DNA from: a virus
Virus record (IMG/VR): IMGVR_UViG_3300017782_004332
Span: 32,001 to 96,000 of that record
DNA length: 64,000 nt
Direction: 5' to 3' (one strand)
Below, piece after piece: positions 7,486 through 62,434 of this stretch. Under the pieces are notes generated by a model that was given only the letters and a program-made list of their open reading frames with translations, was not told where the DNA came from and searched no databases. Both the position numbers and the translations under genes were made by a program. Position 1 is the stretch's first letter; every line of letters begins with the position of its first letter.

Positions 7486-9111
<1,626 letters not shown>

Positions 9112-11474: not shown

Positions 11475-13538
11475 ATGGCTGATAACAGGTATTACGAATT
11501 AGCAACACACAACGAAGCACAATTTGATGAATTGTTTCTAGAGATAACAGGAACAGCATCAAGCCCAGATACAATTCCAGATAGAGCAGTTGAAAACACA
11601 GAATACTTTCAACATAGTCCTGTGCGTGGAGAATTTTTACTTACTGACGATGAAGCAGAAAATTTAAAAACAGATGCAAGAATAAAATACATTCAACTAT
11701 CACCAGACAAGTATCCTGATATTTTTAACGCAACTGAAGATGACCTTCGTGCAGACGTTACAGGTAATGAATATGAAAGATATAGTTTTTCTGTTAAGAA
11801 CTATCAGTTCTGGGCAAATAGTGGGGCGATATCAAGTGCATTTGGTACAGGCGCGGCAGATCTTAATCATGCATCAAATCAACTTTATAGAATGGGTCAA
11901 CAAAGAAACCCATGGATTGTAAGTGGTACTAGTAGTACAACTGCTATCTCAGATACTATTACACAACGAGGTGCAGGAGAAGATATAGATATTATTTGTG
12001 CTGATAACGGAACATGGATTGGCCATGTTGAATTTATTAATACAGGTGTTACTAATGCTGTTAATCCAGATGATTACACAGGCGGTAATGTTTTACCCGG
12101 CAACGGATATTGTGATGTATTAGATGTTATTTTAGATGGACCTTATTATATAGATCCAGATTGGTTTAACGCTGATGCGGCGACTAGATTAACCACACGT
12201 TGGGACGGAACAACAGTGCCTGTAGAAAGTGTTGCTAGAACATGGTGGGGAAACAGTTCTCAACGTTCTGCCGCATTTGCTAGTGCAGGAACAGTAACAA
12301 TAAGTTCATTTTACACAAGAGATGGTGTACATGGATCTAACACAACACATCCAACAGGTGCCGCGGCTACACACGGAACTCAGTGTGCAAGTTTGATATA
12401 CGGTCGTACACACGGTTGGGCATACAACGCAAACAAATGGCATTTAAATTTATACGGCGCTAGTAACGCAGGGTCAATTGAGCGTGGGTTTGATATTCAA
12501 AAGATTTTCCATGAAAACAAACCTAACAATTCAAGATACGGAACTAAAGATCCAACTATAAGTTCAAACAGTTGGGGATATAGAGCAGACAAGTCAGGAA
12601 CACATTATTATTTTCGTGATAGCGGAGCAGTAAGTTATCCTGGATCAGTTGACGAACCAGAATTTTTAAAGTATATGGGTATAGATGGAGATGGTGGTCG
12701 TTGGAAATCAGAATTTTATGATAATAGTTTAACTCAGGCTGGAGAAGAATTAGTAAACAGTGGAGTTATTTTTGTAGTGGCGGCTGGCAACAGTGGACAG
12801 ATGCAAGTTAATCCAAGCCATCCTAATTACGATAATAGAATTGCTAACAATAATACTGATAGTTTTTACAATACCACTTACAGTAGTTTTGGTTATAGTG
12901 TTACAGGGTCTACAAATAGAAGAGGTTTCCCACAACACATTGGTAAATCAGTAAGTCAAAGTTCACAAGGTGATACAGTAAACTTTCCTGCTATTAACGT
13001 AGGAGCACTAGATGATTCATTTCAAACTGGTCCATTAGAACGTAAAGTTAATTATAGTGATATGGGGAATGCTATTGACTTATACGCACCTGCAGACGGA
13101 ACACTTGCGGCGGCAGTAGGAACATATGGAACTGATGTTGCACGTCATGATGATACTTACACAGATCTATCAACAACAGATTGTCGTGATACACGCTTTA
13201 GTGGTACTTCAGCGGCATGTCCAGTTGCGGCAGGATTTTTAGCAACTATCTTACAATACAATAGAGGTTGGACTTATACTGATGTACGAAATTGGATTAC
13301 AACTAATGTTCAAGGTGTTGACAGCACCAACGAATTTTATGTAGGCACAGAAGATACTACAGCCGAAAGCGCCGGTTGGGCTGATCGCAACAAACCACAA
13401 AATAGTGCAGATGATGTACGAGTTCTTTATCTAGCACCTTTTACAATTTCAACACCCGACCCACAAACAAACCCTACTGTTTCAATTGGTAATGGATTAA
13501 CGTTCAGTAAAGGTCTAGTTCTTAAAAGACGTGTGTAG
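11475..13538 (+). CDS. Subtilisin-like (S8) serine protease
   Basis: Catalytic D (DIICADNG), H (HGTQCAS), oxyanion N (AAGNSG), S (FSGTSAACP). Confidence 0.88.
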   Translation: MADNRYYELATHNEAQFDELFLEITGTASSPDTIPDRAVENTEYFQHSPVRGEFLLTDDEAENLKTDARIKYIQLSPDKYPDIFNATEDDLRADVTGNEYERYSFSVKNYQFWANSGAISSAFGTGAADLNHASNQLYRMGQQRNPWIVSGTSSTTAISDTITQRGAGEDIDIICADNGTWIGHVEFINTGVTNAVNPDDYTGGNVLPGNGYCDVLDVILDGPYYIDPDWFNADAATRLTTRWDGTTVPVESVARTWWGNSSQRSAAFASAGTVTISSFYTRDGVHGSNTTHPTGAAATHGTQCASLIYGRTHGWAYNANKWHLNLYGASNAGSIERGFDIQKIFHENKPNNSRYGTKDPTISSNSWGYRADKSGTHYYFRDSGAVSYPGSVDEPEFLKYMGIDGDGGRWKSEFYDNSLTQAGEELVNSGVIFVVAAGNSGQMQVNPSHPNYDNRIANNNTDSFYNTTYSSFGYSVTGSTNRRGFPQHIGKSVSQSSQGDTVNFPAINVGALDDSFQTGPLERKVNYSDMGNAIDLYAPADGTLAAAVGTYGTDVARHDDTYTDLSTTDCRDTRFSGTSAACPVAAGFLATILQYNRGWTYTDVRNWITTNVQGVDSTNEFYVGTEDTTAESAGWADRNKPQNSADDVRVLYLAPFTISTPDPQTNPTVSIGNGLTFSKGLVLKRRV

Positions 13539-13585: not shown

Positions 13586-13864
13586 ATGGATTTTTTAACG
13601 TTTATCGGTGAAGTTGGTTTTCCTATAGCAGGAGCAATCGCCGCAGGCGTATTTGTTTTCACAACATTAAAATTTATTCTAGCAAGTGTAACAGGATCTG
13701 TACAAGGTCTTAAAAATATTATCAATGCACTAGACAATCGTGTGCAAACAATGAATAATGATCTAATTAAAATTGATGCCCTACTATCTCATGTAGTTGG
13801 GGTTAAACCTAACATAGAAAGATTAGCCGCGAACGAAGGCAAGGAAGATGCAAGGAGAGATTAA
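13586..13864 (+). CDS. Membrane-anchored coiled-coil protein with GFPI motif
   Basis: N-terminal TM VGFPIAGAIAAGVFVF; paralogous to 14246-14566. Confidence 0.75.
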   Translation: MDFLTFIGEVGFPIAGAIAAGVFVFTTLKFILASVTGSVQGLKNIINALDNRVQTMNNDLIKIDALLSHVVGVKPNIERLAANEGKEDARRD

Positions 13865-14245: not shown

Positions 14246-14566
14246 ATGACATCAGAGTTAGCGGCGGCAATAAAAGACTTTGGCTTTCCTATTGTTGCGG
14301 CAATGGGTTTAGGTTACTTTGTCTACTATGTTTGGCAATGGGTAACACTACAAGTTAAACCTGTTCTAAGTGATGCTAGTGCAACACTTATTAAATTAGT
14401 AGATCGTATTCGTATGCTAGACAACGATATGATTAGACTAAACACAAAATTATCTATGATACTTGAATACTATCAGAAAAAAGGTATGGAACCTGATAAG
14501 GATCTAGAAAAAGTTATTACAAAATATCAATCTCAAAGTAATACACTTAAACAAGATAAAAAATAA
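14246..14566 (+). CDS. Membrane-anchored coiled-coil protein with GFPI motif
   Basis: FGFPIVAAMGLGYFVYYVW then DRIRMLDNDMIRL; paralogue of 13586-13864. Confidence 0.75.
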   Translation: MTSELAAAIKDFGFPIVAAMGLGYFVYYVWQWVTLQVKPVLSDASATLIKLVDRIRMLDNDMIRLNTKLSMILEYYQKKGMEPDKDLEKVITKYQSQSNTLKQDKK

Positions 14567-16618
14567 TTATTTGGTTGTTGCTATAAAGACGCCGTTCCAG
14601 TCTTTAGGTAAGTCTTGTGTTTTCTGATATTTACAACGTTCAATCCACATATCATAATAAGCATCCATTTGTCCATCAAATTGTCCTTTAAGGTCTTTAC
14701 ACATTTTAATAGCAATATCAAAACGTTGATCTTTATATTCTTTGTGCATATGATCGTGTAGTTCTTTTGCCTTAGCATGATCTTTTATAACAATATCTAA
14801 TACTGTCCATATACCTATTCCTACACTCTTGCCTTTAACAGCAAGATCATCTACTTTTAAGTAGAAGAAATCATTCTTAGTTGCTTTATAAGTTGTTTCA
14901 CCTACTAATAGCAAACATCCGTATTCTTTACACTTGCTTTCAATTCTTGCGGCTGTGCTGACGGCATCACCAAGTACATCGTAGGAGTGTCTTGCTGTCG
15001 ACCCCATTTCTCCAAGGTAACCAAGTCCGGAGTTAATACCCGCTCCCATACCGATGGCTGGCCTTCCTTCTGCTGTAATTTTTTCATTAAACTTCTCCAC
15101 TGCTCGTAGCATATTCAATCCAGTGCGGACTGCACTCTTAGGATGATCTGGATCATCAAGTGGTGCACCATGTACATGCATACTTGCATCTCCTATATAC
15201 TTAATTATCATTCCGTTTTCGTTTAAAACAGGTAAAGTAATAGCGTCCATATATGAGTTCATAAGTGTTGTCAATCCTTTTACATCATCTCCAAAACTTT
15301 CACCCAAAGGAGTAAAGCCTCTCAGATCACTGAAGCAGATTGAAATTTCTTTCTTCATGCCTTCTTTGATCAGTGCAGGATTTTCTTGTAGCATACGCAC
15401 AACTGTTGGTGATGCATATCCTGCGAACTGTTTCTTAATTGCTTGTTTTTCAAAGAACTCTTTGGAAAATCGATTGAACACAGAATGGAAACCAACAATA
15501 GTAGTTACTAGTACTATCCAACTCCAATCCCATAACTGTAGATGCCCTATAAACGCTGTATAAGCACCGTACACAGGCGCTATGATTACTGTAAGCATAG
15601 TAGTACCAACGACCCAGTAAGGCGCTTTAAACGCTATTATAATTAGAATAAGACCTATAATAGTAGCAGTTATATACTCTAAAAACGTAGCATAATCAAA
15701 ACGTACAATAGTATCCCCATTAATGATAGTTTGGAGACTTGTGCCTATAAGTTCGTGTGCATATCGTTCTCCGTTTGGAGTAGCAATAATACTGCCTATA
15801 CCTTCTGCTGTAGTTCCAATAATAACTGTTTTGCCTGCAAATTGTGTGTAATCTTGTTCTGTTATACTGTAGGTAGGAAACTGCTTGTTCCAACGTAGCC
15901 ATATCTGTCCATTTGCATCTGTTTTGATTGTGGCGTACTTTGGAATACGCATTGCAGTAATACCGCCTTCTTGCGTTTTAACTTGATAACTTGGATCTCC
16001 AACAGCAACTCTGATGGCTTCAATTGCTATAGCAGGATATGTTTCGTTGCCTACACGTACAATAAGTGGCATTCTACGTACAACCCCGTCTATCTCTGAA
16101 CCTGTGTTTAAAACTCCAACACCGTCTGCATTTAATCCTAATAATTCTATTGGTCCTAACATGCCAGGCCATTCAAACAACCATGGCATAGGATCGCCTA
16201 TCTTAGCAACACCTCGTGGTACAGAATTCTTGTTTGCATTTCGCGAACCTACTTGTCCTATGACTACAGCATTACCTACTAATGCTTGAGCAAGTTCCAT
16301 GTCACCACCAAGTCTATCTTCCTCTGAAAATAATATAGGCAGTACAATTACTCCTGCACCTGACTCACGTAACTTCCATATAACATCAGCGAGTACTGAA
16401 CGTTTCCAAGGCCATTGCCCATACTGCTCGATCGCTTTTTCGTCTATCTCAAGTATGGCGATATCTTCGCTAACAACTGGAGTATCGTATTGTTGAACAA
16501 CATCAAATGCTTTTAGTCTCAATAGTTGCTTAACATAAGGATCTGAAAATCCGTATATTGTAAGAAATGCTAAAGTAATCAGGGCGGTTGCCCAGTGGGT
16601 TACATATTTCATACTCAT
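14567..16618 (-). CDS. CHASE2-domain membrane adenylate/guanylate cyclase (class III)
   Basis: N-terminal TM, CHASE2 motifs (IDEKAIEQYGQWPW.R, DGVVRRMPL), three TMs, cyclase motifs FSDLRGFT, IKYIGDA, GAGINSG, YDVLGDAV, VKGK; C-terminal TPR-like region ending WNGVF; start may be ATG 16612. Confidence 0.93.
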   Translation of the reverse strand: MSMKYVTHWATALITLAFLTIYGFSDPYVKQLLRLKAFDVVQQYDTPVVSEDIAILEIDEKAIEQYGQWPWKRSVLADVIWKLRESGAGVIVLPILFSEEDRLGGDMELAQALVGNAVVIGQVGSRNANKNSVPRGVAKIGDPMPWLFEWPGMLGPIELLGLNADGVGVLNTGSEIDGVVRRMPLIVRVGNETYPAIAIEAIRVAVGDPSYQVKTQEGGITAMRIPKYATIKTDANGQIWLRWNKQFPTYSITEQDYTQFAGKTVIIGTTAEGIGSIIATPNGERYAHELIGTSLQTIINGDTIVRFDYATFLEYITATIIGLILIIIAFKAPYWVVGTTMLTVIIAPVYGAYTAFIGHLQLWDWSWIVLVTTIVGFHSVFNRFSKEFFEKQAIKKQFAGYASPTVVRMLQENPALIKEGMKKEISICFSDLRGFTPLGESFGDDVKGLTTLMNSYMDAITLPVLNENGMIIKYIGDASMHVHGAPLDDPDHPKSAVRTGLNMLRAVEKFNEKITAEGRPAIGMGAGINSGLGYLGEMGSTARHSYDVLGDAVSTAARIESKCKEYGCLLLVGETTYKATKNDFFYLKVDDLAVKGKSVGIGIWTVLDIVIKDHAKAKELHDHMHKEYKDQRFDIAIKMCKDLKGQFDGQMDAYYDMWIERCKYQKTQDLPKDWNGVFIATTK

Positions 16619-16631
16619 ATTTACCTAGTCA

Positions 16632-16682
16632 GACCGTCAAATTTCCAACATTCTTGTTGTACAAATTATTTCGACCGTCAAA
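16632..16682. repeat. Direct repeat GACCGTCAAA x2 in the divergent promoter region
   Basis: Copies at 16632-16641 and 16673-16682, 41 bp apart. Confidence 0.6.
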
Positions 16683-16739
16683 ATTTTGTACCAGCATTAT
16701 TTGTGGGGTGGCGTTGGTAAATACGTATGGAGGGCAATA

Positions 16740-17210
16740 ATGCGTAATAACATAACATTTAGAGTAGTACCACTAATCGGACTATTAATCGTTACTTTAA
16801 CAGCAAATTCTGTTGCTAGTGAACTAGTACATGAATTCAAGAATCCTTCCTTCTCAGGACAGGGTTATAGTAACCATGTCTTGTCAATAGAACAATTACA
16901 ATTCCAACGTAAAAAAGAAGCACAGGAAAAGGCAGAGGCAGATGCGGCCAAGGCTAAGCGTGAAGCAGAAAGCACTACACTAGCAAAGTTCTTGAACAAT
17001 GTGGAATCTCGAATTTATGCTCAACTCTCTAAACAGTTAGTAGATAATATGTTTACTGACGATGGAGACACATCAGGCACTGCTGAGATTGAAGGTGCAA
17101 CAATTTATTGGGTCAAAGATACTACCTCGGATACTATTACTGTAACAATTACAAATGAAGACGGTACTACCACAGAGATAGTTGTTCCATTAAGCGGATT
17201 TGGATTTTAA
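16740..17210 (+). CDS. csgF: Curli assembly protein CsgF-like
   Basis: Signal peptide then SELVHEFKNPSFSG; ESRIYAQLS; C-terminal TVTIT.EDGTTTEIVVP; start at ATG 16740 after GGAGG. Confidence 0.85.
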   Translation: MRNNITFRVVPLIGLLIVTLTANSVASELVHEFKNPSFSGQGYSNHVLSIEQLQFQRKKEAQEKAEADAAKAKREAESTTLAKFLNNVESRIYAQLSKQLVDNMFTDDGDTSGTAEIEGATIYWVKDTTSDTITVTITNEDGTTTEIVVPLSGFGF

Positions 17211-18249
17211 GAAAATGAGTAAGATATTGGGTCTGTTTGTGTTATTAACACTACTAGGTGGCTGTGCGACTACTATGCCCGATTCTATGGTCAAAGATCC
17301 ACAAGCGGCAAGAAGTCCTATTGCAAGTATTTTAAAAACAACACCTGAGTTAGACGGACCATTAATCACTATAGCACTTTATAGTTTTACAGATAAAACA
17401 GGACAACGTAAGCCTAGTCAAAATTTTAGTCAATTAAGTTCAGCAGTTACACAAGGTGCTGAAGTTTGGGTCATTGACGCACTACAAAAAGTAGGTAATG
17501 GAACTTACTTTACAGTTTTAGAAAGAATAGGATTAGATAATTTAGTAAAAGAAAGGCAATTAATTAGATCAACAAGGGAGATATATGAAGGCAAGAAAGG
17601 GCAGAATAAATTAAAACCAATGAAGTTTGCAGGTTTAATTTTAGAAGGCGGTGTTGTTGGTTATGACTCGAACATAACCAGTGGTGGCACAGGAGCAAGA
17701 TACTTTGGTATCGGTGCTAACACACAATATCGTACTGACAAAGTTACAGTTGCAATAAGAATTGTGAGTGTACAAACTGGAGAAGTATTATTAAGTGTAG
17801 CCACTGAAAAAACAATCGCCAGTTATTCGTCCGGAGCGGATGTATTTAGGTTTCTTGATTTAGGGACAAAAGCATTAGAAATTGAGGCTGGTGCGGCAAT
17901 CAATGAACCGACCAATTATGCTGTGAGGTCCGCTATTGAAGCGGCTATAGTTGAATTGGTGAAAAATGGAGAAATAAAAGGTCTTTGGAAGTTTAAAGGA
18001 AAAGTGTACAAAGAAAAAGTTGTAGAGGTGCCGAACCAACACAATGAAGTCAAAGTAGATACTCCTTTACCAAACCTCCGCCCACTGCCAGACGTTGAGG
18101 CGTTTAAAAAGTGGCCGGGTCAGACTTTGTATTGTTCAGAGGATAATCTGTGTATACCATCAGATGTTGCTGTGATGCAGTTCAAGTATGAAAGACTGAG
18201 ACAAGAAAACAAAGAAAACAAAGATAGCGAGGATAATAATGATGAATAA
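17200..18249 (+). CDS. csgG: Curli secretion channel CsgG-like outer membrane lipoprotein
   Basis: Lipobox LLGGC; FTDKTGQRKP, SSAVTQGA, FTVLERIGLDNLVKERQLIR, EGGVVGYDSN, GGTGARYFGIG, NEP. Confidence 0.93.
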   Translation: MDFKKMSKILGLFVLLTLLGGCATTMPDSMVKDPQAARSPIASILKTTPELDGPLITIALYSFTDKTGQRKPSQNFSQLSSAVTQGAEVWVIDALQKVGNGTYFTVLERIGLDNLVKERQLIRSTREIYEGKKGQNKLKPMKFAGLILEGGVVGYDSNITSGGTGARYFGIGANTQYRTDKVTVAIRIVSVQTGEVLLSVATEKTIASYSSGADVFRFLDLGTKALEIEAGAAINEPTNYAVRSAIEAAIVELVKNGEIKGLWKFKGKVYKEKVVEVPNQHNEVKVDTPLPNLRPLPDVEAFKKWPGQTLYCSEDNLCIPSDVAVMQFKYERLRQENKENKDSEDNNDE

Positions 18250-18946
18250 ATCATTTGCAATAAGAAATATCCTTTTTGTGGCTATGTTAATCTTTATTTC
18301 ACCGGTGCAGGCGAATGACATTTACATTCAACAGTCAGGTGACAATTTGGATTTAGATATATCACAAGACGGACAAAACAACGTAATCGGTACATCACAA
18401 ACTGGTGTGACTCTTACCGGTAACGCCATGACGTTTAACATTGACCAAATTGGTGGTGCTAACGTTGTATCAGCAATAGTTAAAGGTGTAACTTACACAG
18501 GTAATATTGATCTTACTGGTGACAGTAATGATGTAGCATTACTCTGTGATAGTGCAGGAGCAGGAAACTGTGATACTGTAAGTTTGAGTATTGACATAAC
18601 TGGTTCAAGTGCAGATATTAATGTAAGTGTAGGTGAAGCGGCAGACGCAGAAACCTTCACTGGTACAATAGATATCACAAGTGGTGCATCTGAAACAGTT
18701 ACACTAACAGTAGACGGTAAAAGTGCAATAGCAGATATTGACATTTCAAACAGTTTAGGTAGTGCAGGTAATACAGCAGTGATTGACATTAATGATGATG
18801 GCGATGTCAACGGACACACTTTAACACACAGTCATACAGGAGATGGCGGATTGATTAATATTACGCAGAGCGGGTTATACGATAATATAATTAATCTTAC
18901 AACCAGTGGTGACAGTGCTGATATCGACATAACGCAGGACGATTAA
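18239..18946 (+). CDS. Secreted curlin-repeat (CsgA/CsgB-like) protein
   Basis: Signal peptide ending PVQA; repeats of I-x-Q/I-x-G-x-x-N (IYIQQSGDN, ISQDGQNN, IDQIGGAN, ITQSG..N); acidic. Confidence 0.75.
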   Translation: MMNKSFAIRNILFVAMLIFISPVQANDIYIQQSGDNLDLDISQDGQNNVIGTSQTGVTLTGNAMTFNIDQIGGANVVSAIVKGVTYTGNIDLTGDSNDVALLCDSAGAGNCDTVSLSIDITGSSADINVSVGEAADAETFTGTIDITSGASETVTLTVDGKSAIADIDISNSLGSAGNTAVIDINDDGDVNGHTLTHSHTGDGGLINITQSGLYDNIINLTTSGDSADIDITQDD

Positions 18947-18947
18947 C

Positions 18948-20054
18948 ATGCTAAAACATGTTCTCATACATACCGTCCTCTTATTTGGTTTTTCATTCCC
19001 TGCCCTTGCGACTATTGGCGATGTTATCCAACAAGAAGGTAACGCTGTCATTGAACGTGAGGCAGGAGAAATAGTTACAAGCCAAAAAGATACTGATGTG
19101 TTTAGTATGGACACAGTATTAACACAGCAAGGAGCAACTTCTATTCAATTTATAGACGATACAAGAGTTGACGTTACTCCGCATAGTAAATTAGTAATAG
19201 ACGATTTTGTTTATGATCCTAATTCTAAAACAGGTGCTCTGTCGTTAAAAGCATCTTTAGGAACTGTTAGATACGCAAGTGGACAAATAGCAAAAAATTC
19301 AAGACAAAATGTCAAGATAAAAACACCAACAGCAGTGATTGGTGTTAGAGGAACAGATTTTACCATGACCGTCGATGAGACTGGTAGTACTATGGTAATC
19401 CTACTGCCCAGTTGTACAACAAATGGGATATGTATAGTAGGAGAAATTTCAGTGGAGTCAGACGTGGGTATAGTAATACTCAATCAGGCCTTCCAAGTTA
19501 CTTCTGTTGACACTCCTAAGAGTGCTCCACTGAAACCCTTATTGTTAGATCCAACTAATTTGATCATTAATAATATGTTGATTATACGCAAACCTGTGTA
19601 TGACGATGAACAACAAGAATATGAAAGAGTTAGAAAGTTAGGCGACTTCTTAGGCGTTGACTTTTTATCCTTTGATGAACTTAATACAAACTACTTTGCA
19701 GAAAGTGAAAAAGGTCTTTGGATGACCGATTTAGACATAGACTTCTTAGGTCATAACTTTCTTGCAAACGTATTAGATCAAATTAATCAAGCATTAGCAA
19801 GACTTATGCGTGGAGCATTAGACTCAAGACAAAAGGGTATACAGTTAGGTAAAGATCCAGAAACAGGAATAGAATTGTATGATCAAAACCCAGACTGGGT
19901 ATTAAGACGTGATGACGGATTAGGAAACTTTTATGAATTACGTTTAGATCAACAGTATGGTTATAATATTAATATGCAACAGAACGATTTTGAATACAGA
20001 GACTACCAACTTGGAGATGGACAAAATGAAATTGACATTGTCCAAACACAATAA
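18948..20054 (+). CDS. FecR-domain exported protein
   Basis: Signal peptide; D.V.T....IQFIDDTRV, GTVRYASG, IKTPTAVIGVRGTDF, GEISV are FecR motifs. Confidence 0.85.
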   Translation: MLKHVLIHTVLLFGFSFPALATIGDVIQQEGNAVIEREAGEIVTSQKDTDVFSMDTVLTQQGATSIQFIDDTRVDVTPHSKLVIDDFVYDPNSKTGALSLKASLGTVRYASGQIAKNSRQNVKIKTPTAVIGVRGTDFTMTVDETGSTMVILLPSCTTNGICIVGEISVESDVGIVILNQAFQVTSVDTPKSAPLKPLLLDPTNLIINNMLIIRKPVYDDEQQEYERVRKLGDFLGVDFLSFDELNTNYFAESEKGLWMTDLDIDFLGHNFLANVLDQINQALARLMRGALDSRQKGIQLGKDPETGIELYDQNPDWVLRRDDGLGNFYELRLDQQYGYNINMQQNDFEYRDYQLGDGQNEIDIVQTQ

Positions 20055-21517
20055 TGTTTGAGAGATTTATTATAAGATTGGCACTTGTATTATTTGTACT
20101 TATGGTGATGTTAGCATCTAAACCTGTACAGGCTAATGACGCATTTATATATTATAAAAATAGTGGTACCTATGCTACTACAAGCCAGTACAACAACTTA
20201 AAAACAGAACTTGAAGATGCAGGCTTTACTGTTTCAAGTAGCACAAGTGGTACTGTAAGTTCAAGTGATGTGTCAGGTCAGGACCTTGTGATTGATATCA
20301 CAGGTGGTTCAAACTGTGGTAGTACTTGTAAATCAGTGTATGACAGTTATGTTAGTGGTGGTGGTAAATTAGTTATAGTAGGAACCTACGGAGCAACCAA
20401 CAGAAATAGCAGTATAGAAGCACTGATCGAAACTAAGATGAGTGTAGGAAGTTTCACTTTAGGTGGAGGTTGTAGTACTTGTTATAGTTCAGTTGCTGTA
20501 GGAAATTACGCTTCAACAGGTGTAGCAGGTGAGAATGTTTTACCAGGTACAGACCACTATATGTACAGCGTATCTGGTGGTACCGCAATGGCTAATAACT
20601 CCACCAGTAGTTCTAATATAAGAATGTGGCACAAATGGGACTATGGTAGTAATGGTGGAAGTGTAGCAGTTACTTTTGGTTATGGACAATTTCTTTCAAC
20701 TCACACGTATGCAAGTAATATGAATGACTTCTTGTATCGAGCAATGCAAGAAGAAGGATTAATTACAACAGCGTCTTATACTTCAAGCATCAGTAACGCA
20801 CAGACCACACAAATGACAACATCAAGAGGTGTAACACACAATGGTAATGGAATATACATTAATCAAGTAGGCAACAGTAATTCACTTACTATTGTACAAG
20901 ACGGCAATGATAACTTAATAGCAGGTGTTGGTAGTACAACAAACAGTTTAGTTGATGCAGATATTACAGGAAATAACAACACTACTACACTAAAACAAAA
21001 AGGTAACAACAATGTTATGTTGTTTGATATTACAGGCGATTCTAATACGACAACTGTTGATCAAGGTAGTACATCAGGTGCAGATGATAATAGAGTTGAG
21101 TTTGATATTAATGGCGACACTAATACAACAAGTATAACACAAAATCATAACAACGGTATAGGAACTAATGGACACTTCTTTGCATTAGATTTAGATGGTG
21201 ACAACAACAATGTTTTAGCAAGTCAACTCAATGACGGAGATAAAAAAGCATTCCTAAGTGTACAAGGTGATGATAACGACATTGATCTAATACAACAAGG
21301 TGCAGGTTCGCACTATGCAGAAATTGCTGTTGGCAGTGATCAAACTGTTGACATTACACAAGACGGCAGTGGACAACATAACACTTCAGTGTCTATGTCA
21401 GGGTTTAGTGCAACACTTGACCTTGATCAATCTGGTTCAACAAATCAAACATATTCAATAAACCAATCTTGTATAAATGCAAATGGTTGTGGTACAACTA
21501 CTGTAACACAACAATAA
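20054..21517 (+). CDS. Secreted protein: N-terminal alpha/beta domain plus C-terminal curlin-like repeats
   Basis: Signal peptide ending PVQA; from about residue 265 repeats IYINQVGNSN, IVQDGNDN, LKQKGNNN; ends SINQSCINANGCGTTTVTQQ. Confidence 0.75.
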   Translation: MFERFIIRLALVLFVLMVMLASKPVQANDAFIYYKNSGTYATTSQYNNLKTELEDAGFTVSSSTSGTVSSSDVSGQDLVIDITGGSNCGSTCKSVYDSYVSGGGKLVIVGTYGATNRNSSIEALIETKMSVGSFTLGGGCSTCYSSVAVGNYASTGVAGENVLPGTDHYMYSVSGGTAMANNSTSSSNIRMWHKWDYGSNGGSVAVTFGYGQFLSTHTYASNMNDFLYRAMQEEGLITTASYTSSISNAQTTQMTTSRGVTHNGNGIYINQVGNSNSLTIVQDGNDNLIAGVGSTTNSLVDADITGNNNTTTLKQKGNNNVMLFDITGDSNTTTVDQGSTSGADDNRVEFDINGDTNTTSITQNHNNGIGTNGHFFALDLDGDNNNVLASQLNDGDKKAFLSVQGDDNDIDLIQQGAGSHYAEIAVGSDQTVDITQDGSGQHNTSVSMSGFSATLDLDQSGSTNQTYSINQSCINANGCGTTTVTQQ

Positions 21518-21527
21518 TAAATACGTT

Positions 21528-21947
21528 ATGAACAAGAGTAGGTGGCAACGTTTTAAAGAATGGTGGACCATTGATCATGTAGTTGATCTTTGTGTTGATG
21601 CATTGCTTTTAATATGGGAAGTAGTTTCAAGTCCTATTCTTATTGTTGTTAGAATTATTAGACACTTTATAGGTGATTGGTTTGTTGGCGGACTTAAACG
21701 TATTGCCCGAGCAATAGTTCATTGGTTTGCACGTAAGAGAGCATACCGCAAAGAACACGGACACGGAATATTTAGAACCTATTGGTACCTAATACTAACA
21801 AGTCCTTTTATAGCATTTTTCCTTTTTATTTTTCTTGCAATGATAACAGGTATTGCACAAGACCTTCCTGAAATGTTAGAACTGCTAATACGTGGTTGTG
21901 ATTCTTTACAGCCTGCCGCAGAACAATATTGGTGCAATATTAACTAA
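21528..21947 (+). CDS. Hypothetical membrane protein
   Basis: 139 aa with hydrophobic segments; TAAATA 4 nt before ATG. Confidence 0.65.
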   Translation: MNKSRWQRFKEWWTIDHVVDLCVDALLLIWEVVSSPILIVVRIIRHFIGDWFVGGLKRIARAIVHWFARKRAYRKEHGHGIFRTYWYLILTSPFIAFFLFIFLAMITGIAQDLPEMLELLIRGCDSLQPAAEQYWCNIN

Positions 21948-31808: not shown

Positions 31809-32147
31809 ATGAAGAACATTATTTTTTTAAAGAAAGAGATTCCTAATCGCATCAGGAAACAAGTAGAATATTGGAACCTGTTTGCGAAGTTAGCACCAAT
31901 AGCATTTGTTGTTGGAGGGTTCTTTTTCTATGAGTTTAACTTTTGCTCGTTACAAACACTATTGTTTGTAGGCGCCGGGATGTTTACTGTCACGGCAGTT
32001 ATTTGGTGGTTCTGGACTGTTAATACTATTGGGTTTGTATCAGACAGAGTACATAAAGCAGAAGAAGGAATTCAAGATGTTCTATCAGATCTTAAAATAA
32101 TAAAAGAACTTTTTCGAGAAATTAAAGACAACAATAACAAGAAGTAA
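31809..32147 (+). CDS. Two-TM membrane protein
   Basis: Two hydrophobic helices then coiled coil; TAAATA-N5-ATG. Confidence 0.65.
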   Translation: MKNIIFLKKEIPNRIRKQVEYWNLFAKLAPIAFVVGGFFFYEFNFCSLQTLLFVGAGMFTVTAVIWWFWTVNTIGFVSDRVHKAEEGIQDVLSDLKIIKELFREIKDNNNKK

Positions 32148-38851: not shown

Positions 38852-41800
38852 ATGGCACGTAAAACAATTAACATTGGTACAACAGGTAACGACGCTACCG
38901 GCGATAGTATTAGAGAAGGCTTTAATAAAGTCAATCAGAACTTTACTGAAATCTATGCATCATTAGGACTTGGCGGCGGATTAACATTTACATCTTTAGA
39001 CGACACTCCACCAACACTCACTGCTAACACAGTATTAACAACTAACACAGCAGGTGATGCTGTTAGTGCAAGAGTAATTGAAGGTGAAGGTATTGCAGTT
39101 GATTTTACATCTGATCCTACTAAACTTAAATTACGAACAACTGGTACAGAAATTAGATTAGATACAACTCCAGAACTTGGTGGTGACTTAAATGCACAAA
39201 CGTTTTTAATTGAAAACTTAGGTACTCCAGTTAAAGATCAAGATGCTGTTACTAAAAAATATGCAGATGACAAGTTTTTAGATGCCTCTGGTGATACTGC
39301 AACAGGTATTATTAAATTACAGGATTCAGGACAGCCAAGAGTACCAAATAGTCAAGACGAAGCAGTCAACAAAAAATATGCTGATACAAAAATAAGACTT
39401 GCTGGTGACTCAATGACTGGACCGTTGGTTCTATCACAATCACCTACATTTACCTCAAGCGAGTTACAAGCGGCTACTAAACAATATGTAGACAATAACA
39501 GTTTTACAAGTAAGAAAAATTTATTCGTAAGCACCAACGGTAGAACAGAATCACAAATGATTGCTGACGGTGTAGACCGAACACAGGTTGGTCGTTCTTT
39601 AGCATACGCATTTGACAATGTTAGAGAAGCGGCGTTCTATGCAGAAAGAATTATTAAAGGTGACATTACACTTAAAGATCAAGGTCTACTAACTGGTGAT
39701 GTTGTTTTTCCTGTACCTGGTAGAAAGCCTGGGCCATACACAGTTAACATGGCGGCCGATGGAACTGAAGATACAACAAATGTTTTAGCAAACAAATTGT
39801 TTGTTAACAACCGAGAATTTATTCAACGCGAAACACTTGCATTTATTGAAGCAGAAATTAACGACGGTGATAACACAGATGACTTTGCTTCTAACTTTAC
39901 ATTTAACAGAGAAAAATGTTTCCGTGATATTGGATTAATTATTGATGCAGTAAGTTTTGATTTAACCTACGTAGGAAATTCAAGAACAGTTGATGCGGCG
40001 GCTTCATATTGGGACGGTGCTACATCAAGAGTAGCAGGACAACAAACCGAAACTGTTGCGGCACTTGTATTTGCTAAGAACCTAATTCAAAACAATGTGT
40101 TGACAAATACTGCTTATGTTGCTCCATCGAACACAGAAAACCCGTATGCTGTTGCACTTATTAATGCAAACAGAGAATACATTGCAGACGAAACTATTGC
40201 TTACATTGAGGCACAAATTGCGGCTGGCGCTGGTATTTGGAACGGATTTACATACGATAAAACAAAATGTGAACGTGATGTAAAAATTATTTTAGATGGT
40301 ATTGCATTTGATTTAAAATACGGTGGTAACTCTGAATCAAGAGAAAATGCTTCACGTTATTGGAACGGTGCTACAAGTTATGTTGCAGGTCAACAGCCAC
40401 AAACAGTTGATGCATTAAACTTTACTAAAGACCTAGTAAGAAATAATATTATTCTAAACACAGCATATGCTTCAAGACAAAGTGTAACTGAACAGGTTAC
40501 TAACAGTAACAACGGTGAAAGTTCAGCAAGTACAAAAATTAATACACTAATGAATATGATTGCTGACGTTATTACTAACGGCTTAGGCAACTTACCTGTA
40601 CTAGAAGGTACTTACAGTAATCAAAGTGGTGCTGAACAATTTATTGATTCATCGGTTATTGCTGAGTCAGGAGCAAGTACTGAAATTGGTAACTTGATGG
40701 ATATTGTTACCAATGTTATTACTAACGGATTAAGTGCATTACCTGCAAAAATTGGCGGAGAAGGTAGAGAACAAAATGTTCCACTACCTGAAGTAACTAT
40801 TCATGTTGAATCAGGATTTTATGAAGAACTTACACCGATTGTACTTCCTGAGAACTGTTCAATCAAAGGCGACGAATTTAGACGTGTAATCATTCAATCT
40901 CAAGTAGGTGTACGTCCACCACAACGTGCATTAGATTTAACATTTGAACGTGGTGATCAAAAACGCTACGATGGTACTGGTACACCCAAAGCGGCACGTT
41001 TCCGTAATCACTATGACTCACAATATTCAAGAGCAGATACAGGAGCCGGTGTTAACCAAACAGGTGCGGCGCAGATTAGATTAAAAGATTTAGTTTATTA
41101 CCCACGTTGGGGGCAATACTTTGAGTACAACGGTACAACTTATTACGTCAAAGAAGTTAGTTTTGATCCTGCTGGTGTAGAAGATTTTACAAGAGCAGAC
41201 TTAACGTTGTATAGTGATATTAACTTAACAACTACTACAACACTTCAAGATGATGTCCCAAATAATACTGTTATTGAATTAAAAATGCTTAACCAACACG
41301 GTGATGTGTTCTTAGTTAATAACTCTACAATTTTAAGAAATATAACAATACGTAGACACCAAGGTGCAGTTATGGTACTTGACCCAGAAGGGCAAATCCT
41401 AACCAAATCACCATACGTACAAACATGTTCTTCGTTCTCATCACAGGGTGGTGCAGGACAACTTGTTGATGGTAATGCAGGTGCACAATATGGTGTAGTT
41501 GTAGATAATCCAGCAAGTGGTGCAACACTTACGCTAAAAGGATTGACTAGAAAAATCCAAGTACCGACTACATTTATATACCAAGGTGCAGGTGGTACAG
41601 AAAAGAAAACATATAGAGTTATTGCTGTAACTGCGCCAGTTGATGACGGCGACGGTAACACACCTGCGACATTTAAACAACAATTAACACTTGCGGCAAC
41701 AACTACTATTACTGTTGATGCTAAAACATTACCTACAGGAACTATACCACAAAATGATGAAATAAGAGTTGAAACTGCTGGTAACAAGTCAATGACATCA

Positions 41801-44800
41801 AATGACTATACACAGATTAACAATGACGGGTATGGATTGATTGCAACAAACAACGGACTAGTTGAAACTGTTTCAGTATTCACATACTATTGTGACACAG
41901 CATATTGGGCAAGAAACGGTGGTCAAATTAGATCATTAAATGGTTCTAACGCTTATGGTAGACTTGCACTTAAAGCAGAAGGTTCAGATCCAAACGAAAA
42001 TATTCAGTCAGGAAGTATTTTCCATAGAGAACTTAACGCTTTGGTTGAATCAGACTCATCAAGAAGAGATTACTCGCAACCATTTAAAATTCATGACCCA
42101 TCAGGTGCAGGTGATATTACAACAGGTGCAACTGATATACCAATTAGAGATTTTGAATTCTTACCTGTTCCAGGAAGTATTTTTAGATTAACACAGTATG
42201 CATCAAATTCAGATACTACTGATTATAAAATTGACGAAGTTGAAGATGTTAGTGTTAATATAACAGCAATTTCAATTGCCGCTGAGGCAGTAATTACAAC
42301 TGACGTTACTCATTATTACAGAGACGGAGCAATGGTGTTCCTAACTGGTGCCAATGCAAATGGTATGACAGGTGTTGACGGTGCCTATTATGTTAAATTA
42401 GTAAATGCAACATCATTTAAACTTTGTACTGACATTGGTTTAACAACTTTCTTAGATACAACCGCAAAAGGAAATCCAAGTTATAATGGTTCAGGTTGTG
42501 TTGCTAAAGGTGGTGGTAGAGCAGTATTAAAACTAGGATCTCAACTAAGCCTTGGTGTTGGAACTACAGTACCAGACGCAAGTGAAGTTATACTTAAACT
42601 AGGTAAAAAGGTATATGTAAGAAACTTAACAGATACTCCTAGAGTTTTACCAAGTTCGGCACTAACATTCGCTACAGGCGATCAAACAGTATTTAGAATT
42701 TTAGGTGTAGAAAGATTAGTAACTAGTGAAGTTGGTGATTCAAACGTTGATCATCAATTAATGAGTTTGGATTTACAATTTCCAGCAGATAGATTTAATG
42801 GCGACGTTGTAAAAGTAACAACTAAAATTTCTACATTAAGAGCAACAGGACATGACTTCTTAAATATTGGTTGGGGTAACTTTGCAAACTCTAACTATCC
42901 AAACAATGTGTTTGGTGCACCAAGTGGACGACCAGACTTTGCTTCAGACCAAGCAAGTGAAGCAGTTGAAGTAGGTGCAGGTAGAGTGTTCTATGCAAGT
43001 ACTGACCAAGATGGTAACTTTAGAGTTGGTAAGTTCTTCCGTGTTAACCAAGGTGATGGATCAGTTGAACTTAATGCAAATATTTCATTAACGAATGTTG
43101 ATGGATTAGGATTTACAAAAGGTACTGTTGTTGATGAATTTAGTACAGATGATAAACTCTTAGGTAAGTCAGATGATGCTGTACCAACAGAAGCAAGTAT
43201 TGTTACATACCTTAATAGTGCTATTATTGGACAACACGAAGATGGTACTGCGTTTCCTGAATGGACAACTACAGGTGCACAGAGTGGTGGAAACTTTGGT
43301 GTTTTAACTAGAGCAGGATACAATAGTACAAACCTTTCTTGGAATAGAATGTATGGTGAACTTAATATGGGCACCAACAAAATTACAAACATCTCAATGA
43401 CAGGCGCTCAAGATGTTGACGGTGTAAACAAATTATATGCTGACAATGTATTCCGAGGCGGAACAACAGATAGTATTAGAACAGATGTAAAATCATTTAC
43501 TATGTTAAATGATAGTACAGTTGATAGTGGTGCTATTGATATGGCGGGTAATAGAATTAAATCTTTAAGAGATCCGTTTGATGGGTCTGATGCTGTAACA
43601 AAACAATATGTTGATGAACAAAATAGAATAGGTGGCCTAGAAGGTGTTACTGTAACTGGTGATCCAAGCAATACAGATTTACTAATGTTTAGCGGAACTA
43701 ACCACACAGATGGTTTAGGTAATGCAATTCAAGGTGCTGTAAATGTTGCATTAGATACTACTATAGATAACACAGGCGGAAGTCCAACATTTGGTGAGCC
43801 AACTGGCACAGGTTCAGATATTAGATTTACTAGAATTAATAATGAGATTAATATTCAACTTGCTAGTGGTGCAGTTAAAAATGCAGACATAAGTGCGGCG
43901 GCGGCAGTAGCACAAAGTAAATTGAATATGAATGCGGCAACTACTAGAGTAAATGCTTCAGGTATTACACAAGCAGATTTAGGTCTAGCAAGTTTTGATA
44001 GTACAGAATTTTCAGCAACAAGTGGTTGGATAGAATTAAAAACTCCAACATTGGCCAATCCAAATGATGGTGTAACATTAGATAAAATAGAATTTATTAC
44101 AGGTACAAGTATACTTGGTAACAGTTCAGGTAGTGAAGATGCTGTAACTGCTCTTACACCGGCACAGGTTAGAACACTTATTGATTTTAATAACTCAGTT
44201 GAATCATACATTGATGAAAACGTTTTAGATACTAACGGTGCTATTGTTAAAACTGGTGGTACTATGACAGGTACTTTACAAACACTTAACGTAAGACCTG
44301 CAAGTAACGAAACTAGTGATTTAGGACAATCAACAGCACGTTATAATACGCTACATTCAAAACAAGTTAACACAGATACAATTCAAGAAGCACGTGGTAA
44401 TATAGTAAACATCACAGCAATCACTCAAGCAGATCCGGCAGTTATTACAACAAGTGTTGCTCATAATTTTAAAAATGGCGATAAAGTTAAATTCCTTGGT
44501 GTAGGAGGAATGACTGAAATTAACGGATTACAAAAATTCGTTGGCGGAGTAACATCAAACGGTTTTGAAATTTATGAGGATTCTGGATTATCAAACGGTA
44601 CTGATACAACAGGATTTACAACATACACATCAGGTGGTACAGCAAATACAGTATTTGATTTAGTATTAGGTACAGATGGAACAGCAATTCTTATACTTGA
44701 TAAAGGTAACAGTTATACTGACAGTAGATTTATTGGTAGTACTGATAAGTTAACCACTGCAAGAACTATTACATTTACAGGTGCGGCAACAGGCACAGTT

Positions 44801-45451
44801 GATTTCGACGGTAGTACAGATGTTAGTGTGGCATTATCAGCGGCAGTGGCGGCAGGTTCTCCATATGATGGAACCTACATGCGTAGAAACGGTTTAACAG
44901 AAGATTCAAACATGACTGGTGTACTTGGATCTAAAGCAATTATGCCAAGTGCAAGTGTATCCGGTGGTACAAACGTAGCGGCAGATGCAACATATGATAT
45001 TGGTGAAACAAGTAACAGATATAATAATGTATATGCTGTAAGATTTGAAGGTGTTGCTTCAGAAGCAGAGTTTGCTGACTTGGCAGAGAAATACCTAGCA
45101 GATACAAATTACGAAAACGGAACAGTATTAATGTTTGGTGGCGAACAAGAAGTAACTGCTTCGAATCAACAAGGAACTACTAAAGTTGCTGGAGTAGTTT
45201 CAACAGCACCAGGGTACACAATGAATAATAAATTAGAAGGTGAACATGTTACAATGTTAGCACTACAAGGTAGAGTACCTTGTAAGGTAGTTGGAACCAT
45301 TGAAAAAGGTGACATGATTGTTGCAAGTTCAATTACTGGTGTTGGAACAGCAAGTGACGATCCGAGATTAGGATCAGTTATAGGTAAAGCACTAGAAAAT
45401 TACAACAGCGATAGCGTAGGCGTTATTGAAGTTGTAGTTGGAAGACAGTAA
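38852..45451 (+). CDS. Giant virion structural protein (baseplate/tail fibre, VrlC-like), 2199 aa
   Basis: T4 gp9/gp10-like N-terminus INIGTTGNDATGDSIREGFNKVNQNF; DAVTKKY repeats; KCxRD repeats; SPYVQTCS; C-terminal ADLAEKY...GRVPCKV domain. Confidence 0.85.
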   Translation: MARKTINIGTTGNDATGDSIREGFNKVNQNFTEIYASLGLGGGLTFTSLDDTPPTLTANTVLTTNTAGDAVSARVIEGEGIAVDFTSDPTKLKLRTTGTEIRLDTTPELGGDLNAQTFLIENLGTPVKDQDAVTKKYADDKFLDASGDTATGIIKLQDSGQPRVPNSQDEAVNKKYADTKIRLAGDSMTGPLVLSQSPTFTSSELQAATKQYVDNNSFTSKKNLFVSTNGRTESQMIADGVDRTQVGRSLAYAFDNVREAAFYAERIIKGDITLKDQGLLTGDVVFPVPGRKPGPYTVNMAADGTEDTTNVLANKLFVNNREFIQRETLAFIEAEINDGDNTDDFASNFTFNREKCFRDIGLIIDAVSFDLTYVGNSRTVDAAASYWDGATSRVAGQQTETVAALVFAKNLIQNNVLTNTAYVAPSNTENPYAVALINANREYIADETIAYIEAQIAAGAGIWNGFTYDKTKCERDVKIILDGIAFDLKYGGNSESRENASRYWNGATSYVAGQQPQTVDALNFTKDLVRNNIILNTAYASRQSVTEQVTNSNNGESSASTKINTLMNMIADVITNGLGNLPVLEGTYSNQSGAEQFIDSSVIAESGASTEIGNLMDIVTNVITNGLSALPAKIGGEGREQNVPLPEVTIHVESGFYEELTPIVLPENCSIKGDEFRRVIIQSQVGVRPPQRALDLTFERGDQKRYDGTGTPKAARFRNHYDSQYSRADTGAGVNQTGAAQIRLKDLVYYPRWGQYFEYNGTTYYVKEVSFDPAGVEDFTRADLTLYSDINLTTTTTLQDDVPNNTVIELKMLNQHGDVFLVNNSTILRNITIRRHQGAVMVLDPEGQILTKSPYVQTCSSFSSQGGAGQLVDGNAGAQYGVVVDNPASGATLTLKGLTRKIQVPTTFIYQGAGGTEKKTYRVIAVTAPVDDGDGNTPATFKQQLTLAATTTITVDAKTLPTGTIPQNDEIRVETAGNKSMTSNDYTQINNDGYGLIATNNGLVETVSVFTYYCDTAYWARNGGQIRSLNGSNAYGRLALKAEGSDPNENIQSGSIFHRELNALVESDSSRRDYSQPFKIHDPSGAGDITTGATDIPIRDFEFLPVPGSIFRLTQYASNSDTTDYKIDEVEDVSVNITAISIAAEAVITTDVTHYYRDGAMVFLTGANANGMTGVDGAYYVKLVNATSFKLCTDIGLTTFLDTTAKGNPSYNGSGCVAKGGGRAVLKLGSQLSLGVGTTVPDASEVILKLGKKVYVRNLTDTPRVLPSSALTFATGDQTVFRILGVERLVTSEVGDSNVDHQLMSLDLQFPADRFNGDVVKVTTKISTLRATGHDFLNIGWGNFANSNYPNNVFGAPSGRPDFASDQASEAVEVGAGRVFYASTDQDGNFRVGKFFRVNQGDGSVELNANISLTNVDGLGFTKGTVVDEFSTDDKLLGKSDDAVPTEASIVTYLNSAIIGQHEDGTAFPEWTTTGAQSGGNFGVLTRAGYNSTNLSWNRMYGELNMGTNKITNISMTGAQDVDGVNKLYADNVFRGGTTDSIRTDVKSFTMLNDSTVDSGAIDMAGNRIKSLRDPFDGSDAVTKQYVDEQNRIGGLEGVTVTGDPSNTDLLMFSGTNHTDGLGNAIQGAVNVALDTTIDNTGGSPTFGEPTGTGSDIRFTRINNEINIQLASGAVKNADISAAAAVAQSKLNMNAATTRVNASGITQADLGLASFDSTEFSATSGWIELKTPTLANPNDGVTLDKIEFITGTSILGNSSGSEDAVTALTPAQVRTLIDFNNSVESYIDENVLDTNGAIVKTGGTMTGTLQTLNVRPASNETSDLGQSTARYNTLHSKQVNTDTIQEARGNIVNITAITQADPAVITTSVAHNFKNGDKVKFLGVGGMTEINGLQKFVGGVTSNGFEIYEDSGLSNGTDTTGFTTYTSGGTANTVFDLVLGTDGTAILILDKGNSYTDSRFIGSTDKLTTARTITFTGAATGTVDFDGSTDVSVALSAAVAAGSPYDGTYMRRNGLTEDSNMTGVLGSKAIMPSASVSGGTNVAADATYDIGETSNRYNNVYAVRFEGVASEAEFADLAEKYLADTNYENGTVLMFGGEQEVTASNQQGTTKVAGVVSTAPGYTMNNKLEGEHVTMLALQGRVPCKVVGTIEKGDMIVASSITGVGTASDDPRLGSVIGKALENYNSDSVGVIEVVVGRQ

Positions 45452-61925: not shown

Positions 61926-62434
61926 ACTTAATTTATTACCCAGACGAATTTTTAAACAAACAAGTAAAACCAGTTGACTTCGAAAACCCTGGCATGGATC
62001 TAGCAGATGTTAAAAAAGATATGCTAGACATTATGTATGCTAGTGATGGAGTAGGATTAAGTGCAAACCAAGTAGGCATTGATGCACAGATATTTGTCAT
62101 GGGAAGTAAACATGTTCCTGATAAAAGTGCAGTCTTTATCAATCCTAAAGTATTAGAAGCAAGTAAAGAAACAACATTAGATTGGGAAGGTTGTTTAAGT
62201 TTCCCTGGAGTTTACGTAAAACTACATAGACCCAAGTGGATAGTAGCAGAATTTTATAACGAGAAAGGTGAGAAGCAAACAGGCAAAATTGAAGAATATG
62301 ATGCAAGATGTTACCTTCATGAATTAGATCACTTACTTGGTATTACATATAAAGATCGTGCAAGTGGTCTTAAATGGGAAATGGCAGTAAAACGTGCAAA
62401 TAAATTTAAGAAACGAGGATTAATTAATGCTTGA
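61922..62434 (+). CDS. def: Peptide deformylase
   Basis: GVGLSANQ, EGCLS, HELDH. Confidence 0.95.
   Translation: MNLIYYPDEFLNKQVKPVDFENPGMDLADVKKDMLDIMYASDGVGLSANQVGIDAQIFVMGSKHVPDKSAVFINPKVLEASKETTLDWEGCLSFPGVYVKLHRPKWIVAEFYNEKGEKQTGKIEEYDARCYLHELDHLLGITYKDRASGLKWEMAVKRANKFKKRGLINA

Follow-up and report, generated by a model that had tools for sequence, protein, structure and literature searches.

A rearranged pelagiphage curli region links a FecR-domain protein and a CHASE2 cyclase in a putative envelope-signaling module

We analyzed 64,000 nucleotides of viral DNA (positions 32,001 to 96,000 of IMG/VR record IMGVR_UViG_3300017782_004332; hereafter the window, with coordinates counted from its first letter) that hold a compact block of genes for a curli-type secretion pore, CsgG and CsgF, two curlin-like proteins, an exported FecR-domain protein, and a membrane CHASE2 class III nucleotidyl cyclase. 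The best-supported reading of this block, and the one that on balance we favor, is an apparatus for signaling across the cell envelope; it rests on homology to the rhizobial NsrA/CyaK system, on the linkage of the genes, and on the co-variation of their domains. New here are the larger extent of the module, the finding that its FecR protein is not an anti-sigma factor, the link to NsrA/CyaK, a promoter motif, and the domain co-variation.

Results

Linkage and Conservation of the Module

The source record is 105 kb of a T4-like phage, estimated to be 30% complete; among isolates, Pelagibacter phage HTVC008M and Methylophilales phage Melnitz are nearest to it. An earlier note on this DNA, made from the sequence alone, mentioned csgF and csgG as reported in marine myophages; the block as a whole is not new either, being a rearranged version of the curli (type VIII secretion) region published for pelagiphages (PMC9599517, PMC7029224, PMC9004378). 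Zaragoza-Solas et al. (2020; PMC7029224) described a pelagimyophage csgF/csgG operon with three more genes, and Wittmers et al. (2022; PMC9599517) a region of one or two "histidine kinases," CsgF, CsgG, CsgA/B, FecR, a second CsgA/B, and an adenylate cyclase that occurs in podo- and myo-pelagiphages, the podovirus versions often lacking the cyclase. Wittmers et al. interpret FecR as a regulator that depends on iron and make no mention of CHASE2, and Buchholz et al. (2022) discuss the CsgGF of Melnitz as a possible lysis pore, leaving the cyclase and FecR unmentioned. In HTVC008M (KC465899, AGE60348-60353) and Melnitz (MZ577097, genes 99-104), the six genes are contiguous and collinear with the cyclase last. 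The window has the same internal order of small membrane protein(s), csgF, csgG, curlin, FecR, and curlin, and its FecR protein is 55-56% and its cyclase 46-70% identical to theirs, but the cyclase gene is inverted and lies upstream of csgF, head to head with it.

Conservation and REARRANGEMENT were judged from a scan of viral contigs, in which 280 carried a relative of the FecR protein; 80 were fetched, and 29 of these loci were well flanked, each side extending for 4.5 kb or more. All 29 well-flanked loci also encode the cyclase, CsgG, CsgF, and a 106-residue membrane protein, o106. Across the viral loci, the cyclase gene takes at least five positions or orientations. In most it lies downstream on the same strand; among the 80 loci, only L003 and L004 have it upstream and inverted as in the window, and the remaining arrangements place it downstream and inverted, upstream on the same strand, or separated by 1-5 kb. 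In the synteny check that the earlier note had proposed, the linkage of the cyclase and curli genes has survived at least five arrangements, and the block is under selection as a unit. The claim that the six genes form one module stands, whereas its stated size does not, as the module is larger and also includes small membrane proteins. Six contigs labeled as bacterial metagenome-assembled genomes (MAGs; L083-L088) carry the entire phage-type module, and one of them, L088, is clearly a phage contig binned into a MAG, with genes for DNA polymerase, ligase, endolysin, and clamp loader. We found no cellular genome with CsgG beside the FecR-cyclase pair.

Bacterial Relatives and the NsrA/CyaK Pathway

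A scan with an alignment of the FecR protein against one genome per prokaryote species gave 251 relatives. The six best loci were L083-L088, and the counts that follow come from the remaining 72. In these, similarity is confined to the FecR domain (residues ~20-205; 30-37% identity). A full-length homolog of the CHASE2 cyclase was found in 30 of the 72, with 28-32% identity over the sensor, membrane, and catalytic parts and the C-terminal extension, and 46 contained a protein of ~477 amino acids, X477, usually directly upstream. CsgG and CsgF were found in none of the 72 loci, and the C-terminal half of the phage FecR protein had no bacterial match. The earlier note had stated that bacterial CHASE2 cyclases often neighbor FecR-domain and outer-membrane proteins, and the counts for the cyclase and X477 agree: FecR and the CHASE2 cyclase are a genuine, old bacterial pair accompanied by an outer-membrane partner.

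This partner, X477, is predicted to be a Slam-like protein with a periplasmic TPR part and an outer-membrane barrel. Among 41 members, Pfam matched TPR_19 in 38, SlipAM in 14 (best E 2e-8), DUF2860 in 10, and TPR_Slam in 6. The predicted model (mean pLDDT 78) has TPR helices followed by 14 beta strands and superposes best on the 14-strand barrels OmpG and CymA, with the TPR-barrel exporters BcsC and PelB also listed; the Slam assignment is made because of the Pfam matches, found in a minority of the members, and the 14-strand fold. A sequence search of the PDB with X477 matched only TPR proteins, its hidden Markov model matched NsrA weakly and in the TPR region only, and no protein of the phage module was picked up by its profile. 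A C-terminal FHBP_C or TbpB_B_D barrel, the TbpB/fHbp-type domain of Slam cargo, is present in 4 of 64 bacterial FecR partners. A split module of a Slam/type XI secretion system-like TPR-barrel, FecR-domain protein(s), and a CHASE2 cyclase has been reported for Campylobacterota (PMC9239204). The bacterial split module and the phage module both have the FecR-domain gene adjoining that of a full-length cyclase; they differ in that the former has X477 and no CsgG, CsgF, or curlin, whereas the latter has the curli genes and no match to X477. A Pelagibacteraceae single-cell genome (AG-337-M21; L116:8485-11470) encodes a Slam-like X477 and a 514-residue FecR-domain protein, with no cyclase within 10 kb; genes for a dienelactone-hydrolase-like protein and a tautomerase come next.

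According to the earlier note, no described mechanism linked these parts. One exists in Sinorhizobium meliloti, where NsrA, a protein with FecR domain, TPR repeats, and barrel, is required for signaling through CyaK. The two genes lie on pSymB, with a one-base overlap between nsrA and the beginning of cyaK. Within NsrA, residues 66-160 form a FecR domain (E 2e-15), 378-587 are TPR repeats, and 600-1200 are described as a predicted barrel (PMC7529298); CyaK consists of CHASE2 and cyclase domains. NsrA, located in the outer membrane, is reported to be needed if CyaK and CyaD1/D2, all CHASE2 cyclases, are to perceive their signal (PMC7529298, PMC13001267); these cyclases are described as raising cyclic AMP (cAMP) for the Clr regulator. 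Between the phage FecR domain and the N terminus of NsrA, identity is 25% over 182 aligned residues (E 2e-6), and in both systems a FecR-domain gene lies next to the gene of an inner-membrane CHASE2 class III cyclase. NsrA, however, combines FecR domain, TPR, and barrel in one protein of 1200 amino acids, whereas the phage FecR protein stands alone, with neither TPR nor barrel; the outer-membrane arm of the NsrA pathway is the TPR-barrel, whereas that of the phage would be CsgG/CsgF; and the NsrA pathway has the Clr receptor, whereas the phage and most of the SAR11-family genomes searched showed no Clr/CRP-type receptor. The homology suggests that the phage FecR/CHASE2 pair is an envelope sensor like rhizobial NsrA/CyaK.

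Co-variation of Domains across Phage Loci

We computed Spearman correlations of pairwise identities over 32 nonredundant phage loci, giving 496 pairs that are not independent of each other. The identities of the CHASE2 domain correlated most strongly with those of the FecR domain (r = 0.68) and the FecR C-terminal half (0.66), then with CsgF (0.44), CsgG (0.35), the catalytic domain of the cyclase itself (0.28), and CurA, the first curlin-like protein (0.15). The partial correlation of CsgG with CHASE2 given FecR was -0.02, against 0.62 for FecR with CHASE2 given CsgG, and the difference between the CHASE2-FecR and CHASE2-CsgG correlations was 0.31 (confidence interval [CI] 0.15-0.43, bootstrap over taxa). 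The two halves of the FecR protein behaved differently, as the C-terminal half tracks CsgG better than the N-terminal domain does (difference 0.16, CI 0.05-0.28) and likewise CsgF (difference 0.13, CI 0.03-0.24). This preference runs against gene order, the N-terminal domain being encoded nearer csgG. The cyclase gene is a mosaic: compared with the window, L010 is 75% identical in CHASE2 and 46% in the catalytic domain, whereas L062 is 36% and 76% identical, respectively. Taken as sequence statistics, these patterns fit a bridging FecR protein with one half facing CHASE2 and the other CsgG/CsgF.

Genes and Proteins of the Module

All six genes listed in the earlier note were found at the places it gave, and Pfam matches back five of them. 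The plus-strand genes form the tight operon that it had described, csgF, csgG, curlin-like, FecR, curlin-like, in which neighbors overlap or sit 1-11 nt apart. Each of the five plus-strand proteins looks exported, as the note had held, with a lipobox in CsgG and signal peptides, judged by eye, in CsgF, CurA, the FecR protein, and CurB. Its gene calls held, and the starts required correction, to the ATG at 16740 for csgF, the ATG at 17215 for csgG, and, most likely, the second ATG at 16612 for the cyclase.

The open reading frame (ORF) of the cyclase spans 14567-16618 on the minus strand, 683 amino acids from its first start. Every cyclase homolog in the alignment begins at the position of the second ATG, so 16612 is the most likely start, giving a gene of 14567-16612 and a protein of 681 amino acids. 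Pfam assigns CHASE2 (E 3e-42) and Guanylate_cyc (E 2e-16), and adenylate cyclases of the PDB match down to E 1e-21. The metal-binding aspartates D431 and D477, the adenine-specifying K473, and the transition-state arginine R558 are invariant in 52 phage homologs. At the second position of the Lys/Asp adenine pair, D547 is present in 25 of the 52, the type of the window. The transition-state Asn of class III cyclases is replaced by Ser554 in the window and in 25 of the 52 phage cyclases, and the two positions co-vary, giving Asp547 with Ser554 in 25 homologs, including that of the window, and Ser/Thr547 with Asn554 in 27. Decay of the enzyme is unlikely because Ser554 is conserved; judged from its residues, catalytic activity with cAMP as product is uncertain. 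Two homologs, L030:6895-8772 and L057:2333-4444, have in-frame stops (one and two, respectively) and may be pseudogenes or assembly errors.

The FecR protein (18948-20054, plus strand; 368 amino acids) comprises a cleavable signal peptide directly ahead of a FecR beta domain (~25-205; Pfam FecR E 1e-9, match from residue 56; phrog_37870) and a phage-specific C-terminal half. With FecI/FecR/FecA ferric citrate signaling it shares only the Pfam FecR beta domain: FecIRA anti-sigma factors have a cytoplasmic anti-sigma domain and a membrane anchor, and the phage protein has neither. No Sigma70_r4_2 match, indicative of an extracytoplasmic function (ECF) sigma factor, was found in the record, which is incomplete. 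A role as an iron anti-sigma factor is ruled out on these grounds. The idea that the C terminus is a curlin repeat is likewise unsupported, as profile comparison with CurA gave a probability of 3.7% over 10 columns, and all that the C terminus has in common with curlins is a conserved N-x-I-x-I-x-Q strand at its end. The AlphaFold model of the protein has a mean pLDDT of 49, reaching 60-79 in the FecR beta domain only, and was left out of fold searches because of this low confidence; for the C-terminal half, the ESM Atlas gave nothing useful. Complex prediction for the FecR domain (23-205) with the periplasmic CHASE2 domain (26-308) scored 0.28 and 0.23 against a mark of 0.32, with alignments of 35 rows.

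Of the curli-type genes, csgF (16740-17210, plus strand) encodes a CsgF homolog with signal peptide (Pfam CsgF E 3e-17; phrog_35372) that had no sequence match in the PDB. The neighboring csgG (17215-18249, plus strand) encodes an outer-membrane channel lipoprotein with lipobox LLGGC (Pfam CsgG E 2e-50). Structures of Escherichia coli CsgG match its residues 5-279 (E 3e-52), which is their entire mature length, and it carries an additional C-terminal tail of ~65 amino acids. CurA (18239-18946, plus strand; 235 amino acids, with signal peptide) has no Pfam match, is present in all the viral loci, and is likened to curlins through strand motifs and a weak BLAST similarity to the repeats of CurB (E 8e-5). 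CurB (20054-21517, plus strand; 487 amino acids) consists of a signal peptide, an N-terminal domain (~30-262), and curlin repeats (~265-487; Pfam Curlin_rpt E 7e-10). The evidence for curlin repeats is thus one Curlin_rpt match in CurB and, for CurA, likeness in BLAST and at the motif level, the motif hydrophobic-x-hydrophobic-x-Q being common to both. The N-terminal domain of CurB (20138-20840; ~235 amino acids) occurs only in the closest relatives, more distant phages having a shorter CurB that matches in the repeat region alone; it has no family match, and the ESM Atlas gave nothing useful for it. The block shares the CsgG lipoprotein channel and CsgF with the curli type VIII secretion system, whereas CsgE and CsgC had no match in the incomplete 105-kb record, in agreement with the earlier note; according to the literature, both are also missing from alphaproteobacterial operons.

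Small membrane proteins accompany these genes. The bitopic protein o106 (14246-14566, plus strand; 106 amino acids) has one transmembrane helix and a basic, probably helical tail (phrog_18771, E 4e-28), and a 92-residue paralog (13586-13864, plus strand) belongs to the same family (phrog_18771, E 5e-30). To judge from position, the two would hold the place of the "histidine kinase" of Wittmers et al.; Pfam gave o106 no kinase domain at E 0.01 or better. In a cellular-looking contig of the Rickettsiales MAG MED657 (L090:5210-15400), with glycosyltransferase and ABC transporter genes, a 1317-residue FecR-domain protein is followed by a CHASE2 cyclase and then two o106-like proteins (at most 52% identical to that of the phage), and in rearranged phage loci the cyclase gene tends to end up adjoining o106. 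Since both put the two together, the cyclase half of the module may be where o106-type proteins belong. A 139-residue accessory membrane protein (21528-21947, plus strand), recognized by tblastn synteny and without a family match, recurs in a minority of loci and in some relatives lies between CurB and the cyclase.

Promoter Motif and Neighboring Genes

The head-to-head arrangement of the cyclase and csgF with two TAAATA boxes, noticed earlier, was recovered with one box per strand. No hexamer is more enriched than TAAATA within the 60 nt ahead of window genes (25 of 86 genes vs. 1.9 expected, 13-fold), and its occurrences fall into two spacing classes. In one, the motif begins 22-26 nt ahead of the ATG and precedes a ribosome-binding site, as for csgF, whose box (16718-16723, plus strand) is 22 nt upstream of the ATG and precedes GGAGGG. 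In the other, it starts 11 nt before the ATG, and the cyclase box (16618-16623, minus strand) fits exactly if the gene starts at 16612; at least eight other window genes share this spacing, which suggests leaderless or near-leaderless late transcripts. T4-type late promoters offer the analogy for the TAAATA boxes, and by this analogy the cyclase gene and the divergent operon headed by csgF are probably both expressed late. The complete T4 late-promoter octamer TATAAATA shows strong depletion in the window, with 1 occurrence vs. 9.5 expected.

Genes of phage context in the window include those for GroEL (7489-9111, plus strand; phrog_5725, E 3e-177), clamp loader, a tail fiber protein, and a Lon-like ATP-dependent protease truncated by the window end (62427-63998, plus strand). 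An ORF of 2199 amino acids occupies 38852-45451 (plus strand). Directly upstream of the module, 11475-13538 (plus strand) encodes a 687-residue S8 subtilase-family protein (Pfam E 8e-17; phrog_9158) without an obvious signal peptide; such a subtilase adjoined the module in none of the 80 related viral loci.

Discussion

In the mechanism that we propose, TAAATA promoters of the phage would drive the block, probably at a late stage of infection. The infected cell would gain an outer-membrane pore made of CsgG and CsgF and a pair of secreted proteins with curlin repeats, and with them a sensor pair made of the exported FecR-domain protein and the inner-membrane CHASE2 class III cyclase. This pair would descend from the widespread bacterial module of TPR-barrel protein, FecR-domain protein, and CHASE2 cyclase, with the curli pore replacing the barrel partner in the phage. 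The N-terminal domain of the FecR protein would contact the periplasmic CHASE2 domain and its phage-specific C-terminal half CsgG/CsgF, so that the state of the pore or of surface fibers would set the output of the cyclase, probably cAMP. The contacts, the direction of signaling, the cue, the product, and its target are steps that we infer. A fuller version, in which the bridging FecR protein lets the late-infected cell turn a surface or secretion cue into a cyclic nucleotide, read by a receiver outside the known families that bind cyclic nucleoside monophosphates (cNMPs) and serving, for instance, to time lysis or block superinfection, is in our estimate unlikely. The cue proposed in the earlier note, superinfecting phage or cell contact perceived by a surface curlin, is speculation, as is its effect on the timing of lysis.

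Several points weigh against signaling. A cNMP-binding domain was found in none of six phage records (this one, the complete Melnitz and HTVC008M, and three others) and in only 3 of 61 SAR11-family genomes searched, which leaves the output of the cyclase without a known receiver. Ser554 in place of the transition-state Asn makes the product and activity of the enzyme uncertain. The stand-alone FecR-domain protein SMc02177 of S. meliloti is reported to be dispensable for plant-signal perception, so a FecR neighbor is not always essential. Recombination blocks and unequal rates, moreover, can also give co-variation among linked genes.

Other explanations give the parts different weight. The fibers may be the point, with curli-like fibers on the infected cell serving aggregation, "sibling capture," or surface masking and with FecR and the cyclase only regulating secretion, as could be read from the intact and conserved CsgG, CsgF, and two signal-peptide curlin-repeat proteins and as Wittmers et al. 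and Zaragoza-Solas et al. have proposed. We consider this rather improbable: the phage records searched yielded neither CsgD nor CRP nor any other regulator responsive to cNMPs, transcriptional control by cAMP has no visible route because all genes lie behind the phage's own promoter motif, the FecR protein is without an anti-sigma part and a search of the record gave no ECF sigma factor, and clumping was not seen in the Melnitz infections of Buchholz et al. By analogy with Slam cargo, the FecR protein could instead itself be exported through CsgG, with CHASE2 monitoring its periplasmic pool and the cyclase reporting secretion status rather than an outside cue. The cargo-type barrels in 4 of 64 bacterial partners, the Slam-like X477, the conserved curlin-like strand motifs at the end of the phage FecR protein, and the co-variation of its C-terminal half with CsgG and CsgF all agree with such a feedback; the comparison of that C terminus with the CurA profile is not significant, however, most bacterial FecR partners have no recognizable cargo domain, and NsrA itself carries the FecR domain and the barrel in a single chain, which leaves the idea with a small probability.

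Still less probable is a gated pore, pinholin- or secretin-like, into which CsgG/CsgF would have been repurposed to control lysis, the cyclase being incidental. Buchholz et al. speculated on a lysis role from structure models and synteny in Melnitz, and single-pass small membrane proteins do accompany the module, but CsgG is an outer-membrane lipoprotein channel and not an inner-membrane holin, and the FecR protein and cyclase, which they did not consider, are as conserved as the pore. The least likely of all is that the curli set and the FecR-cyclase pair are unrelated cargoes traveling together only through joint acquisition. That the bacterial pair occurs without CsgG/CsgF and that podovirus versions often lack the cyclase would be expected from it; a linkage that outlasts at least five rearrangements in 29 of 29 loci, a FecR gene placed between two curlin genes, and again the co-variation of the FecR C-terminal half with CsgG and CsgF would not.

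Signaling across the envelope by a FecR/CHASE2 sensor, which we prefer to these explanations, would bear on some of the most abundant bacteria in the ocean: the hosts of such phages are SAR11 and OM43, and the module is widespread, with 280 viral contigs in one scan. According to the literature, the SAR11 and OM43 clades encode no curli components. Since the host clades lack these and few of the SAR11-family genomes searched have a cNMP receptor, the phage appears to install an envelope apparatus and a second-messenger source that the cell lacks. Seeing the FecR/CHASE2 half as a sensor of the NsrA/CyaK type replaces the published reading of an iron regulator and makes a gene block that had lacked an explanation accessible to specific assays of binding and cAMP. 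If the bridging reading is true, a type VIII secretion pore would have been recruited as the outer-membrane arm of an NsrA-type pathway. As the inputs of CHASE2 domains are mostly unknown, the compact phage version could serve as a model for CHASE2 sensing.

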